Sequence record: PP274704.1
Direction: 5' to 3' (one strand)
Length of the DNA: 64,000 bases
Origin: Escherichia phage ECp13
Shown here: piece by piece, positions 7,615 to 51,794 of the stretch
How positions within the stretch are numbered: the first letter of the stretch is position 1
Layout: the number at the start of each line of letters is the position of its first letter
Made by a program: the position numbers and the translations under genes
Notes under the pieces: model-generated
Told to the model about the DNA's origin: nothing
The model's input: the letters and a program-made list of their open reading frames with translations, nothing else
Database searches by the model: none

Positions 7615-7642
7615 TCACATTCTGTATATTACCATTCTAAGC

Positions 7643-7680
7643 TATCGTTCCCTTCTTATCGTTCCCTTCTTATCGTTCCC
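7643..7680 (+). repeat. tandem direct repeat, 14-bp unit TATCGTTCCCTTCT x 2.7
   Basis: copies at 7643-7656, 7657-7670, partial 7671-7680; intergenic. Confidence 0.9.
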
Positions 7681-17919: not shown

Positions 17920-18483
17920 ATGAGCTTATTTGAAGATGATATTCAATTAAACGAGCATCAAGTTGCTTGGTATTCAAAAGATTGGACAGCTGTCCAATCT
18001 GCTGCTGATTCTTTTAAGGAAAAAGCTGAAAATGAATTTTTTGAAATAATTGGAGCTATTAATAATAAAACTAAATGCTCTATTGCTCAAAAAGATTATT
18101 CAAAATACATGGTTGAGAATGCATTATCACAATTTCCTGAATGCATGCCAGCTGTATATGCTATGAATTTAATTGGATCAGGTTTAAGCGATGAAGCCCA
18201 TTTTAATTATCTGATGGCTGCTGTTCCTCGTGGTAAAAGATATAGTAAATGGGCAAAACTGGTTGAAGATTCTACCGAAGTATTGATTATTAAGTTACTT
18301 GCTAAGCGGTATCAAGTTAATACAAATGATGCAATTAACTATAAATCAATTCTTACTAAAAATGGAAAACTACCTTTAGTATTAAAAGAACTAAAAGGTT
18401 TAGTCACGGATGATTTTTTGAAAGAAGTGACTAAGAACGTAAAAGAACAGAAACAACTCAAAAAACTAGCATTGGAATGGTAA
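17920..18483 (+). CDS. 62: clamp loader small subunit gp62
   Basis: 187 aa, start overlaps gene 44 stop. Confidence 0.85.
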
Positions 18484-29633: not shown

Positions 29634-29830
29634 ATTAACCCAACTAAAGCAAATGCTAAATCTACGAATGTATCAAGAGTAATTACTGGAATATTAACGC
29701 CATGAGCAATAGCAATTGGCGATAAAACAAAATTCCAGAGTAAAATTCCTACCATAGCAGAAATAGTAAAAGCTATACGTTTTTTATTACCTTTTATGGC
29801 ATTAACAAGTGCCATTAATTTTTGTACCAT
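29630..29830 (-). CDS. small membrane protein, 66 aa, antisense to flanking genes
   Basis: minus-strand ORF with AGGAGG 4 nt before ATG; two hydrophobic segments; stop overlaps gene 61 stop. Confidence 0.4.
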   Translation of the reverse strand: MVQKLMALVNAIKGNKKRIAFTISAMVGILLWNFVLSPIAIAHGVNIPVITLDTFVDLAFALVGLI

Positions 29831-29843
29831 ATGTCCTCCTTAT

Positions 29844-29867
29844 TGCTTTATATATTTATTGTATAAT
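29844..29867 (+). promoter_or_regulatory. putative middle promoter for gene 56 (MotA box TTGCTTTA + TATAAT)
   Basis: TTGCTTTA 29844-51, TATAAT 29862-67. Confidence 0.4.
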
Positions 29868-29901
29868 TAATCTACTAACCCATGAATTGAAAGGAAAAAT
29901 A

Positions 29902-30419
29902 ATGGCTTACTTTAATGAATGTAGTCAACTGATTGAAGGCGCTGATAAAGCTCAAAATGAATACTGGGATATTCTCGGCGATGAAAAAGACCCGCTGCAG
30001 GTTATGCTTGATATGCAGAAATCTCTGCAGGTTCGTTTAGCTAAAGATAAACCTGAATATAACCGTCATCCTGATGATTTGGCTACTGCAGGTGAAGTTG
30101 TTGATTGGCTGCGTAATCAGAAAGATTATATTGATGATGAATTCCGCGAACTTCTGACTTCTCTTGGTGGTATGAGCAATGGCGAAAAAGATGCATCTGC
30201 TGTATGGAAGCTTGGAAGTCGCAACACGGTGAACGTCGTGAAACTCTGATTACTGACTTATCTCCACAAGACCAGTTGGAAATTAAATTCGAAATGATTG
30301 ATATTCTTCATTTCGTTCTGAACATGTTCCAAGGTCTCGGTCTTACGGCTGAAGAAATCTTTAAACTTTATTATCTGAAAAATGCTGAAAACTTCGCTCG
30401 TCAAGACCGAGGTTATTAA
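29902..30419 (+). pseudogene. 56: dCTPase (dCTP pyrophosphatase, MazG-like) gp56 interrupted by an apparent 1-nt deletion
   Basis: N-terminal 116 codons in one frame (stop 30247-49), C-terminal conserved part in -1 frame from ~30204; joint length ~171 aa as in T4 gp56. Confidence 0.65.
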
Positions 30420-41617: not shown

Positions 41618-41662
41618 TGATTACCGGAGTATAATATTCCCGAAACCAAACGAGGATAAGTG

Positions 41663-43480
41663 ATGATTAAGAATGAAATTAAAATTCTGAGCGATATTGA
41701 ACATATCAAAAAGCGTAGCGGCATGTACATTGGCTCTTCCGCTAATGAAATGCATGAGCGCTTTCTGTTTGGTAAATGGGAAAGTGTTCAGTATGTACCT
41801 GGTCTTGTTAAGCTTATTGATGAAATTATCGATAACTCAGTAGATGAAGGTATTCGTACTAAGTTTAAATTCGCGAATAAAATTAATGTTACTATCAAAA
41901 ACAATCAAGTAACAGTTGAAGATAACGGTCGTGGTATTCCACAAGCGATGGTTAAAACACCTACTGGTGAAGAAATTCCCGGTCCTGTTGCCGCCTGGAC
42001 TATTCCAAAAGCAGGTGGTAACTTCGGTGATGATAAAGAACGTGTCACTGGCGGTATGAACGGTGTTGGTTCTAGTTTAACTAACATTTTTTCTGTGATG
42101 TTTGTCGGTGAAACTGGCGACGGTCAAAATAATATTGTAGTTCGTTGTTCAAATGGCATGGAAAATAAATCATGGGAAGATATTCCCGGAAAATGGAAAG
42201 GAACTCGTGTTACTTTCATTCCTGATTTTATGTCATTTGAAACTAATGAGCTGTCTCAAGTTTATCTTGACATTACACTGGATCGTCTCCAGACACTTGC
42301 AGTAGTTTATCCTGATATTCAATTTACCTTTAATGGTAAAAAGGTTCAGGGTAATTTTAAGAAATATGCACGCCAATATGATGAGCATGCTATTGTTCAA
42401 GAACAAGAAAATTGTTCTATTGCGGTTGGTCGTTCACCAGATGGTTTTCGTCAATTAACATACGTCAATAACATTCATACTAAGAATGGTGGCCATCACA
42501 TTGACTGCGTTATGGATGATATTTGTGAAGACCTTATTCCACAAATCAAACGTAAGTTCAAAATTGATGTAACTAAAGCACGTGTTAAAGAATGTTTGAC
42601 TATCGTTATGTTTGTTCGTGATATGAAAAACATGCGATTTGATTCTCAGACTAAAGAGCGTTTGACTTCTCCATTTGGTGAAATTCGTAGTCATATTCAG
42701 CTTGATGCTAAAAAGATTTCACGTGCTATTTTAAATAATGAAGCAATTTTAATGCCAATTATTGAAGCTGCCTTGGCTCGTAAATTGGCAGCAGAAAAAG
42801 CAGCAGAAACTAAAGCAGCTAAAAAGGCTTCTAAAGCTAAGGTTCATAAACATATTAAAGCGAATCTTTGTGGTAAAGACGCTGACACTACTCTTTTCTT
42901 GACTGAGGGTGATTCTGCTATCGGATATCTTATTGATGTTCGTGATAAAGAACTTCATGGTGGTTATCCATTGCGTGGTAAAGTTCTCAACAGTTGGGGT
43001 ATGTCATATGCTGATATGCTTAAAAACAAAGAACTGTTTGATATTTGTGCAATTACTGGATTAGTTCTTGGTGAAAAAGCTGAAAACTTGAATTATCATA
43101 ATATTGCTATTATGACCGATGCTGACCATGATGGTCTAGGAAGCATTTATCCTTCTCTGCTCGGATTTTTTAGTAATTGGCCAGAACTGTTTGAACAAGG
43201 AAGAATTCGCTTCGTCAAAACTCCTGTAATCATCGCTCAGGTCGGTAAAAAACAAGAATGGTTTTATACAGTCGCTGAATATGAGAGTGCCAAAGATGCT
43301 CTACCTAAACATAGCATCCGTTATATTAAGGGACTTGGCTCTTTGGAAAAATCTGAATATCGTGAGATGATTCAAAACCCAGTATATGATGTTGTTAAAC
43401 TTCCTGAGAACTGGAAAGAGCTTTTTGAAATGCTCATGGGAGATAATGCTGACCTTCGTAAAGAATGGATGAGCCAATAG
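41663..43480 (+). CDS. 39: DNA topoisomerase II large subunit gp39 (GyrB-like), single ORF covering T4 genes 39+60
   Basis: 605 aa from ATG 41663 (SD GAGGATAAG); GHKL ATPase and TOPRIM motifs; no interruption. Confidence 0.9.
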   Translation: MIKNEIKILSDIEHIKKRSGMYIGSSANEMHERFLFGKWESVQYVPGLVKLIDEIIDNSVDEGIRTKFKFANKINVTIKNNQVTVEDNGRGIPQAMVKTPTGEEIPGPVAAWTIPKAGGNFGDDKERVTGGMNGVGSSLTNIFSVMFVGETGDGQNNIVVRCSNGMENKSWEDIPGKWKGTRVTFIPDFMSFETNELSQVYLDITLDRLQTLAVVYPDIQFTFNGKKVQGNFKKYARQYDEHAIVQEQENCSIAVGRSPDGFRQLTYVNNIHTKNGGHHIDCVMDDICEDLIPQIKRKFKIDVTKARVKECLTIVMFVRDMKNMRFDSQTKERLTSPFGEIRSHIQLDAKKISRAILNNEAILMPIIEAALARKLAAEKAAETKAAKKASKAKVHKHIKANLCGKDADTTLFLTEGDSAIGYLIDVRDKELHGGYPLRGKVLNSWGMSYADMLKNKELFDICAITGLVLGEKAENLNYHNIAIMTDADHDGLGSIYPSLLGFFSNWPELFEQGRIRFVKTPVIIAQVGKKQEWFYTVAEYESAKDALPKHSIRYIKGLGSLEKSEYREMIQNPVYDVVKLPENWKELFEMLMGDNADLRKEWMSQ

Positions 43481-43509
43481 TTTACTTTACCACAAGGATG
43501 TGGTATAAT
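43480..43509 (+). promoter_or_regulatory. T4-type early promoter
   Basis: GTTTAC 43480-85, 18-nt spacer, TGG-TATAAT; near-identical to 11-40. Confidence 0.6.
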
Positions 43510-43534
43510 TAATTGGGCAAATGAGGATATTGAA

Positions 43535-43738
43535 ATGAAATCATATAGAGTAAATTTAGAACTTTTTGATAAAGCAGTTCATCGAGAATATAGAATCATT
43601 CAACGCTTTTTCGATATGGGAGAAGCTGAAGAGTTTAAAAACCGCTTTAAGGATATTAGAGATAAAATTCAATCCGACACCGCAACTAAAGATGAACTAC
43701 TAGAAGTTGCTGAAGTTATTAAACGCAATATGAATTAA
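43535..43738 (+). CDS. hypothetical protein, 67 aa
   Basis: ORF after ATGAGGATATTGAA. Confidence 0.5.
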
Positions 43739-43748
43739 TGAGGAAATT

Positions 43749-45925
43749 ATGATTATCACCACTGAAAAAGAAACAATTCTTGGTAATGGTTCTAAATCAA
43801 AAGCATTTAGCATCACAGCATCTCCTAAAGTATTCAAAATTCTGTCATCTGATTTGTATACAAACAAGATTCGCGCAGTAGTCCGTGAATTGATTACCAA
43901 CATGATTGATGCCCATGCTCTCAATGGAAATCCTGAAAAATTTATCATTCAAGTTCCAGGACGATTAGATCCGCGATTTGTTTGTCGAGATTTTGGTCCA
44001 GGTATGAGCGATTTTGATATTCAAGGTGATGATAATTCTCCTGGGTTGTATAATTCATACTTTAGTTCATCTAAGGCTGAATCTAACGATTTCATTGGTG
44101 GATTTGGTTTAGGTTCTAAATCTCCGTTTAGTTATACTGATACATTTAGTATTACTTCATATCATAAAGGCGAAATTCGTGGTTATGTAGCTTACATGGA
44201 TGGCGATGGTCCACAAATTAAACCTACATTTGTAAAAGAAATGGGTCCAGATGATAAAACTGGTATTGAAATCGTAGTTCCAGTTGAAGAAAAAGACTTT
44301 AGAAACTTTGCTTATGAAGTTTCTTATATCATGCGACCATTCAAAGATTTAGCTATCATTAATGGTCTTGACCGCGAAATTGATTATTTTCCGGATTTTG
44401 ATGACTATTACGGCGTAAATCCAGAAAGATACTGGCCAGATCGTGGTGGATTGTATGCTATCTATGGCGGTATTGTTTATCCTATCGATGGTGTTATTAG
44501 AGACCGTAACTGGTTAAGCATCCGTAATGAAGTGAATTACATTAAGTTTCCAATGGGTTCACTTGATATTGCTCCATCACGCGAAGCTCTTTCACTAGAT
44601 GATCGTACTCGTAAAAATATTATTGAGCGTGTTAAAGAGCTTAGTGAGAAGGCATTCAATGAAGATGTAAAACGATTTAAAGAATCTACATCTCCTCGTC
44701 ATACATACCGTGAATTGATGAAGATGGGATATTCTGCTCGAGATTATATGATTAGTAATTCAGTCAAATTTACGACTAAAAATCTGTCATATAAGAAGAT
44801 GCAAAGCATGTTTGAACCAGATAGTAAGCTATGCAATGCAGGAGTTGTGTATGAAGTAAATCTTGACCCTCGACTGAAACGCATTAAGCAAAGTCATGAA
44901 ACTTCAGCCGTTGCATCAAGTTATCGTCTGTTCGGTATTAATACAACAAAAATTAATATCGTTATTGATAATATTAAAAATCGCGTTAATATTGTCCGTG
45001 GATTAGCGCATGCGTTAGATGATAAAGAATTTAATAACACTTTAAATATTCATCACAACGAGCGTCTTCTGTTTATTAATCCGGAAGTAGAATCGCAGAT
45101 TGATTTACTCCCTGATATTATGGCAATGTTTGAAAGTGATGAAGTTAACTTCATCACTTGTCAGAAATTGAAGCTTTAGTTAAAAGTTATATTCCGAAGG
45201 CAGTTAAAAGTAAAGCTCCTCGTCCTAAAGCTGCTACTGCGTTTAAGTTTGAAATTAAAGACGGGCGCTGGGAAAAAGAGGAACTGTTTACACTTACGTC
45301 AGAAGCAGATGAAATTACTGGTTATGTAGCATACATGCATCGTTCTGATATTTTCTCTATGGATGGTACTACATCGCTCTGTAATCCGTCTACGAGTATT
45401 TTGACTCGTATGGCTAATCTTATTGGCATTAATGAATTTTATGTTATTCGTCCACTTTTGCAGAAAAAGGTAAAAGAACTTGGTCAGTGCCAATGTATTT
45501 TTGAAACTCTACGTGATTTATATGTAGATGCTTTTGATGATGTAGATTATGATAAGTATGTAGGTTATTCAAGTTCAGCTAAACGATATATTGATAAAAT
45601 TATCAAGTATCCTGAGTTAGATTTTATGATGAAGTACTTCAGTGTAGATGAAGTTTCCGAAGAATATACACGACTCGCTAATATGGTTAGTTCATTACAG
45701 GGTGTATATTTCAACTGTGGAAAAGATACCATCGGTCATGACATCTGGACAGTAACTAATCTTTTTGATGTATTATCAAACAATGCTTCAAAAAACAGTG
45801 ATAAAATGGTTACTGAGTTTACTAAGAAATTCCGTATTGTTTCCGACTTCATCGGTTATCGCAACTCTTTAAGTGATGATGAAGTTTCCCAAATCGCTAA
45901 AACTATGAAGGCCCTTGCGGCCTAA
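43749..45925 (+). pseudogene. rIIA: rIIA interrupted by an apparent 1-nt deletion
   Basis: 476-codon ORF (43749..45179) continues in -1 frame as 255-codon ORF (45158..45925); sum ~ rIIA length (~725 aa in T4); GHKL ATPase-like N-terminus. Confidence 0.65.
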
Positions 45926-45936
45926 TAAGGAAAATT

Positions 45937-46875
45937 ATGTACAATATTAAATGCCTGACCAAAAACGAACAATCTGAAATTGTCAAACTGTATTCAAGTG
46001 GTAATTACACCCAACAGGAATTGGCTGATTGGCAAGGTGTATCGGTGGACACAATCCGTCGTGTTTTGAAAAATGCTGAAGAAGCTGAGCGCTCTAAAGT
46101 TACTATTAGTGGTGATATTACAGTTAAAGTTAATAGCGATGCAGTTATTGCTCCAGTTGCTAAATCTGACATTATTTGGAATGCATCTAAAAAATTCATT
46201 TCAATTACTGTTGACGGTGTAACTTATAACGCAACTCCTAATACTCATTCAAACTTCCAGGAAATTCTTAATCTGCTTGTTGCAGATAAATTGGAAGAAG
46301 CGGCACAAAAAATTAATGTTCGACGCGCTGTTGAAAAATATATTTCCGGTGATGTTCGAATTGAAGGTGGAAGCTTGTTCTATCAAAATATTGAATTGCG
46401 ATCTGGTTTAGTTGATCGTATTCTCGATTCGATGGAAAAAGGCGAAAACTTTGAATTTTATTTTCCGTTCTTGGAAAATCTGTTGGAAAACCCGAGCCAA
46501 AAAGCGGTATCTCGACTCTTTGATTTCTTGGTAGCAAACGATATTGAAATCACAGAAGATGGTTACTTCTATGCTTGGAAAGTAGTTCGCAGTAATTACT
46601 TTGATTGTCATTCAAATACTTTTGATAACAGTCCTGGTAAAGTAGTTAAAATGCCACGTACTCGTGTGAATGACGATGATACACAAACTTGTTCTCGTGG
46701 TCTGCATGTGTGTTCTAAATCTTATATTCGTCACTTTGGCAGTTCAACCAGCCGAGTTGTAAAAGTTAAAGTACATCCTCGCGATGTAGTATCAATTCCG
46801 ATTGATTACAATGATGCTAAAATGCGTACCTGCCAATACGAAGTAGTTGAAGACGTTACTGAACAATTTAAATAA
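45937..46875 (+). CDS. rIIB: rIIB protein
   Basis: 312 aa; matches recalled T4 rIIB. Confidence 0.9.
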   Translation: MYNIKCLTKNEQSEIVKLYSSGNYTQQELADWQGVSVDTIRRVLKNAEEAERSKVTISGDITVKVNSDAVIAPVAKSDIIWNASKKFISITVDGVTYNATPNTHSNFQEILNLLVADKLEEAAQKINVRRAVEKYISGDVRIEGGSLFYQNIELRSGLVDRILDSMEKGENFEFYFPFLENLLENPSQKAVSRLFDFLVANDIEITEDGYFYAWKVVRSNYFDCHSNTFDNSPGKVVKMPRTRVNDDDTQTCSRGLHVCSKSYIRHFGSSTSRVVKVKVHPRDVVSIPIDYNDAKMRTCQYEVVEDVTEQFK

Positions 46876-51713: not shown

Positions 51714-51740
51714 GGGAGAGCCAAGGCTCTCCCTTTTTTA
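51714..51740 (+). terminator. rho-independent terminator
   Basis: GGGAGAGCC-AA-GGCUCUCCC followed by TTTTTT. Confidence 0.8.
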
Positions 51741-51764
51741 TTTCAAAAATTTTTTCACAAAACG

Positions 51765-51794
51765 GTTTACAACCAAAGCATACTGTGGTATTAT
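51765..51794 (+). promoter_or_regulatory. T4-type early promoter for motA
   Basis: GTTTAC 51765-70, 18-nt spacer, TGG-TATTAT. Confidence 0.6.

Follow-up and report, generated by a model that had tools for sequence, protein, structure and literature searches.

The rIIA gene in the window, the 64-kb stretch of phage DNA analyzed here, is disrupted by a complex frameshift that was probably acquired very recently as a genuine mutation in vivo, through a one-step template switch at a quasi-palindrome. One base is missing and two others are substituted within the same short inverted repeat, which has become perfect, and the reading frame runs to a premature stop. The event adds one more case to a known type of mutation, in a locus with a fitting history.

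According to the ORF list, rIIA in the window is divided between two reading frames of 476 and 255 amino acids (Table 1), the second shifted by −1 against the first and overlapping it by 22 nt, with a total of 731 codons. The gene is one CDS of 2178 nt (725 codons) in ESh16, pSs-1, PBM-1, Sfk20, KNP5, and T4 and measures 2177 nt in the window, where it fails to form an intact single frame, with a break at 45149/45150 and a premature TAG at 45177. The first-pass annotation had described the two ORFs in this way, with about 731 codons between them, and had given rIIA as a single gene of about 725 codons in T4; the ORF list agrees with the former and the CDSs of T4 and its relatives with the latter. 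A megablast against 50,697 phage records returned 499 Tequatrovirus-type records, the best of them 98.7% identical, and the aligned span was one base longer in the relatives than in the window. With one A put back, the window aligned without a gap to the 2178-nt rIIA CDSs of 11 relatives, and the 3′ fragment aligned to residues 473–730 of the stop-to-stop segment of Sfk20. The TTG “start” of this fragment is a product of the mechanical ORF call and says nothing about expression. Residues 43–143 of the 5′ fragment gave a weak match to the Pfam family HATPase_c_3 (E = 4e-5; 24 bits, below the cut-off of 25), suggesting that this fragment may hold an N-terminal GHKL-type ATPase-like region. The two ORFs are the halves of one rIIA and constitute a disrupted allele, not a new gene arrangement.

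The phage itself is T4-like, a pSs-1/KNP5-like member of the genus Tequatrovirus, and the genomes closest to the window are about 97.5% identical to it. Gene order in the window, with the topoisomerase large subunit (41660..43480) followed by rIIA.1, rIIA, and rIIB, is the order found in pSs-1, ESh16, KNP5, and T4. The large subunit of topoisomerase II is a single uninterrupted ORF of 606 codons, as it is in pSs-1, KNP5, and Sfk20; T4 differs in that genes 39 and 60 are split, gene 60 being annotated as a joined CDS, and one Logan contig (L029) has a split large subunit with extra ORFs inserted.

Table 1 Positions of the rIIA fragments, the palindrome and its arms, the genes flanking rIIA, and the second split gene in the window
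Feature	Position	Strand	Remarks
rIIA 5′ fragment	43749..45179	+	codons 1–467 native, then 9 out-of-frame codons (FITCQKLKL), premature TAG 45177–45179
rIIA 3′ fragment	45158..45925	+	−1 frame; native residues 471–725
rIIA.1, intact	43535..43738	+	PF24210 T4_RIIA1 in orthologous genes
rIIB, intact, 312 aa	45937..46875	+	from the ORF list; identical protein on six public contigs
Perfect 26-bp zero-spacer palindrome, AAGTGATGAAGTT/AACTTCATCACTT	45134..45159	.	center GTTAAC; imperfect (quasi-palindrome) in all relatives
Left arm, AAGTGATGAAGTT, putative switch template	45134..45146	+	unchanged compared with all relatives
Right arm, AACTTCATCACTT, converted arm	45147..45159	+	A deletion 45149/45150; T>C at 45155 and 45157
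Gene 56 (dCTPase / NTP pyrophosphohydrolase), split	29809–30419		ORFs: one ending at 30249, the other 30204..30419

Alignment against three relatives placed the missing base between 45149 and 45150, where the window reads GTTAAC-TTCATCACTTGTCAG and the relatives read GTTAACATTCATTATTTGTCAG. This base is an A, the first of codon 468 (ATT), and its context, AAC-A-TTC, contains no homopolymer run. Written as codons, the wild type has GTT AAC ATT CAT TAT TTG TCA and the window has GTT AAC TTC ATC ACT TGT CAG. Two T>C substitutions, at 45155 and 45157, accompany the deletion; both lie in codon 470, which changes from TAT to CAC (Tyr470His), and they are the sole substitutions in the 2178 nt of rIIA that are absent from all 11 relatives compared. 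In ESh16, one nucleotide differs 3′ of the break in addition to these two. As read from the alignments, the lesion is therefore a three-change cluster and not a lone single-base deletion. The product consists of 467 native residues followed by 9 aberrant ones, and the C-terminal 258 of 725 residues are gone. Such a truncated rIIA is predicted to be an rII null, and the predicted phenotype is rapid lysis on E. coli B-type hosts together with exclusion by the RexAB system of lambda lysogens, the rIIA-null phenotype as summarized in bioRxiv 10.1101/2025.10.21.683753.

The first-pass annotation had proposed a single-nucleotide deletion within 45156–45162, with NFIT-VSEIE as the repaired reading. 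The net −1 shift that breaks rIIA was borne out, but the deletion did not come singly, being accompanied by the two T>C changes; the missing A maps 7–13 nt upstream of that interval, and the native translation across the junction differs from the proposed one. The annotation had also suggested an alignment to rIIA of T4, which we made: with the A put back, the window differs from T4 at 113 nt and from the Logan contig L031 (ERR14760790) at 2 nt, and the quasi-palindrome of T4 is wild type.

All three changes (the A deletion and both T>C substitutions) render the right arm of the inverted repeat the exact complement of its left arm. In the wild type, pairing of the 13-nt arms AAGTGATGAAGTT and AACATTCATTATTT is interrupted by 2 mismatches and a 1-nt bulge, an arrangement present in all 29 fetched loci spanning the site; the right arm has one extra A and two T’s that stand opposite left-arm G’s, with which C’s would pair. 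A repeat search of the window recovered arms of 13 + 13 nt with 100% complementarity and a 0-nt spacer, for which there was no counterpart in ESh16, and the resulting palindrome exceeds in length every other perfect zero-loop palindrome in the 64 kb. The calculated stability of the single-strand DNA hairpin was −10.5 kcal/mol (z = −4.7) for the window, compared with −2.0 kcal/mol (z = 0.2) for the wild type, whose hairpin is no more stable than that of shuffled sequence. When 200,000 random clusters, each of one deletion plus two substitutions inside 10 nt, were placed in the wild-type gene in simulation, a perfect arm of at least 13 nt arose in 2, a chance of about 1e-5. An ectopic donor for the new right arm was considered and rejected, since the left arm is the sole near-exact copy of its complement and no other near-exact donor was found in the window. 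One other perfect palindrome with arms of at least 9 nt occurs in the window, the 22-bp AGATTGGACAGCTGTCCAATCT at 17979–18000; it is identical in Sfk20 and is thus a lineage-conserved feature rather than a recent event.

The altered allele was private to the window in every collection searched. The wild-type 25-mer GTGATGAAGTTAACATTCATTATTT was invariant in 29 of 29 fetched loci spanning the site, T4, IMG/VR contigs, metagenome contigs, and Logan assemblies among them. A 91-nt stretch around the lesion had no match above 96.7% in 497 phage records, a value that corresponds to exactly 3 differences. The mutant 22-mer had no exact match in IMG/VR, the JGI metagenome contigs, or the GTDB genomes; as a positive control, a wild-type 23-mer was found 5 and 8 times. 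A look-up of the rIIB protein of the window returned six contigs, every one with an intact 725-aa rIIA upstream. A naturally split rIIA in otherwise intact relatives, which the first-pass annotation had named as an observation that would speak against a mutation, was looked for and seen in none.

The closest sequence was L031, which is the same as the window over 43549–46739 (3.19 kb) apart from exactly the three changes of the lesion, and which appears to be effectively the ancestral allele of the rIIA in the window. Because L031 shows no other difference over the 3.19 kb, the event would be very recent and without later decay, and the absence of intermediates suggests that the three changes arose together in one event. 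Beyond the identical block, 36 differences between the window and L031 fall in gene 39 and rIIA.1 (41938–43548) and 8 at the end of rIIB (46740–46839), the latter synonymous as the rIIB proteins are identical; a sharp mosaic boundary of this kind is typical of T-even recombination.

We infer that the + (rIIA-sense) strand was nascent and was being extended from left to right, because the arm synthesized second is the one that gets rewritten and the right arm is the changed one. Its 3′ end, ...GAAGTTAAC, just past the self-complementary center, would have left its proper template and paired through GTTAAC, after which the strand would have copied TTCATCACTT, about 8–10 nt, from the left arm (45134–45146) and returned to its own template via the terminal TT. 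The outcome would be a right arm converted from AACATTCATTATTT to AACTTCATCACTT, with one A lost on balance, two T’s changed to C, and the palindrome perfect over 26 bp, and the −1 shift would then stop translation at the TAG at 45177–45179. Sterically, it would be easier for the nascent 3′ end to move to the opposite strand at the fork than to fold back intramolecularly, because the corrected base adjoins the spacer-less center and a fold-back hairpin would have almost no stem. The simple intramolecular version of a mutation in vivo is weakened accordingly: a zero-spacer palindrome needs a loop to fold, and the loss of the A beside the center is poorly explained by it.

The quality of the record was assessed by comparing the whole window to Sfk20 and KNP5, using the 101 stop-to-stop segments of at least 90 aa that have a counterpart in the window. 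Exactly two genes were split, rIIA and gene 56, and the remaining 1-nt indels across the 64 kb were all intergenic, with none inside a conserved CDS. In gene 56, one C of a CC dinucleotide in GGAAGCCTTGG is lost at about 30211/30212, a deletion that was not seen in any of 718 phage records and is private to the window. There is no direct or inverted repeat or palindrome context at this site, and a templated origin of the gene 56 deletion was rejected on that ground. Gene 56 is essential in T4, and for this reason the deletion is probably a sequencing error; a real loss would sit badly with the viability of a phage that retains denB. The record is thus probably not flawless, which makes it likelier from the outset that the rIIA change, too, is absent from the phage, and the gene 56 frameshift means that the record needs read-level verification at two sites. 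Two intergenic insertions were also seen in this comparison. One, of 42 nt compared to Sfk20, lies at 51733–51774, where KNP5 has the same sequence save one T in a T-run; the other, of 15 nt, lies at 7641–7655 and resembles a short duplicated stretch containing CTATCGTTCC.

The probable error in gene 56 bears on the serious rival to mutation in vivo, namely a templated switch in vitro at the same quasi-palindrome, during PCR or whole-genome amplification of modified T-even DNA or in a cloned fragment, that was caught by a low-coverage consensus, the phage itself being rIIA+. A template switch has the same signature in vitro and in vivo, and gene 56 shows that the consensus is imperfect. Under ordinary deep shotgun coverage, however, switched molecules would account for too few of the reads to reach the consensus, and the conserved CDSs across the 64 kb are free of 1-nt indels beyond rIIA and gene 56. 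Spontaneous r mutants, moreover, are common in T-even stocks, and the picking of large plaques favors them. On balance we regard an origin in vitro as unlikely, if worth taking seriously. Plain base-calling or assembly errors, which would have to be three independent ones within 9 nt, also find some support in the C lost from the CC dinucleotide of gene 56, but they are quite improbable, given that the deleted A lies outside any homopolymer, that T>C miscalls are untypical of homopolymer-error platforms, that the adjoining 3.19 kb is error-free relative to L031, and that all three errors would have to fall exactly where the palindrome is perfected. The first-pass annotation had offered a choice between an r-type mutation and a base-calling error; the r-type mutation is favored, but the bare choice is too narrow, since the cluster points to a templated strand switch by the polymerase.

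A stepwise origin, in which a natural Tyr470His (TAT>CAC) came first and was followed by an independent single-base deletion 6 nt upstream, either real or a sequencing error, would make the palindrome a coincidence. Room for it comes from the nature of the 91-nt comparison, which bounds only the total number of differences: the site was read base by base in 29 of about 500 relatives, and a record with one of the C’s plus another difference in the 91-nt stretch would not stand out. Yet neither C occurs in any inspected sequence, the best match has 3 differences, and L031 is without all three changes in an otherwise identical 3.19 kb. TAT>CAC also requires two substitutions in one codon, both of which match the left arm, and a 13-nt perfect arm would come from such a cluster with a chance of only about 1e-5, which together make this order of events very improbable. 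Hardly credible at all is a functional arrangement, whether a natural two-gene rIIA or programmed −1 ribosomal frameshifting aided by an mRNA hairpin. The 22-nt overlap of the ORFs and the strong hairpin at their junction are what such an arrangement might look like, but no X XXY YYZ heptamer is present in 45120–45179, a stretch that includes the overlap, the hairpin sits over the shift site and not 3′ of it, the second ORF lacks a start codon preceded by an evident ribosome-binding site, and the arrangement is found in no relative, on an allele otherwise identical to the intact one of L031. Programmed frameshifting had already been judged unlikely in the first-pass annotation for want of a slippery heptamer, an assessment that holds and is strengthened by the absence of the change from about 497 phage records and from three contig collections; it was rejected here together with a natural split.

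A mutation in vivo by template switching, the reading we favor, places the lesion in a well-described class. Quasi-palindrome mutations arise when a polymerase that has stalled at an imperfect inverted repeat takes the opposite arm as its template before resuming on its own, and the repeat ends up more perfect or perfect (PMC7202029). The rIIA site has an imperfect repeat in the wild type, perfect arms in the mutant, and no change that the other arm does not predict; judged by sequence-level features, the lesion is of this known type in every respect and does not represent a new system. Such mutations were first recognized by Ripley in 1982, in yeast CYC1 and in T4 rIIB, according to PMC7202029, and de Boer and Ripley (1984) is a further reference for T4 rIIB, as cited in PMC3820800. 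As cited in these two articles, the T4 rIIB frameshifts resemble the present lesion in phage group, in the rII locus, in the step from an imperfect to a perfect repeat, and in combining a frameshift with substitutions predicted by the opposite arm. In contrast to them, the present lesion lies in rIIA and comes from a deposited genome rather than a mutant screen; its palindrome has no spacer, and the correction extends to the base adjoining the 6-bp center. A literature search found no earlier description of this rIIA site. The template-switch hotspots and reporters in E. coli thyA and lacZ (Viswanathan 2000; Dutra & Lovett 2006; Seier 2011), as outlined in PMC7202029, share the mutation class, the raised complementarity of the arms, and a multi-nucleotide change per event; they are, however, recurrent and measured, with an intramolecular mechanism shown genetically (PMC7202029), whereas the rIIA lesion is one occurrence known from sequence.

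Frameshifts in rIIA also arise at a “contingency locus” in T4, T2, and T6, an A6 homopolymer in which slippage, in a run of at least six identical bases, inactivates the gene and reverts readily (bioRxiv 10.1101/2025.10.21.683753). The lesion in the window shares with that locus the inactivation of rIIA by a frameshift and the same predicted trade-off between rapid lysis and RexAB sensitivity. It is not an indel in a homopolymer of at least six bases; its deleted A stands outside any run and has two substitutions alongside, and simple reversion is not expected. The classical rII frameshift mutants associated with Benzer and with Crick and colleagues in 1961, spontaneous or proflavine-induced, were reportedly for the most part single-base gains or losses in repeated bases. 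They are like the present lesion in their net −1 shift and truncated rII protein, but the latter is a templated three-change cluster.

For annotation, the rIIA of the window is best labeled as a disrupted gene (a pseudogene or frameshifted gene) and not as two genes. Should read-level checks bear the sequence out, the phage would probably be an rII mutant whose lysis timing is altered and which is sensitive to RexAB-type exclusion; this is relevant to its use in host-range or therapy work. In comparative genomics, a cluster of this kind, with its one indel and two substitutions, should enter the tally as a single event rather than as three. The lesion also provides an unusually clean example of quasi-palindrome template switching from outside a mutant screen, with a near-isogenic ancestral allele in public data, and it sits in the locus where the template-switch model was first proposed.

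Whether the site is special is a separate matter. It was rejected as the best quasi-palindrome of rIIA, the gene having about 20 similar sites (13-nt arms, at most 3 edits), and with so unexceptional a wild-type repeat there was no prior reason to expect an event here, a point that weighs against the reading of a mutation in vivo. Because of these comparable sites, we do not claim it as a predictable or exceptional hotspot. A bolder proposal, doubtful as it stands, is that the conserved quasi-palindrome at rIIA codons 462–471 is a recurrent natural hotspot, at which strand switching by a T4-type replisome would generate one-step, essentially irreversible rIIA nulls; the zero-spacer geometry would again argue against simple fold-back of the nascent strand. 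Were this so, the site would be a second source of r-type variants, independent of simple-sequence repeats, beside the reversible A6 locus. The quasi-palindrome is identical in T4 and in all Tequatrovirus relatives inspected, and r mutants could arise there repeatedly in T4 as well.
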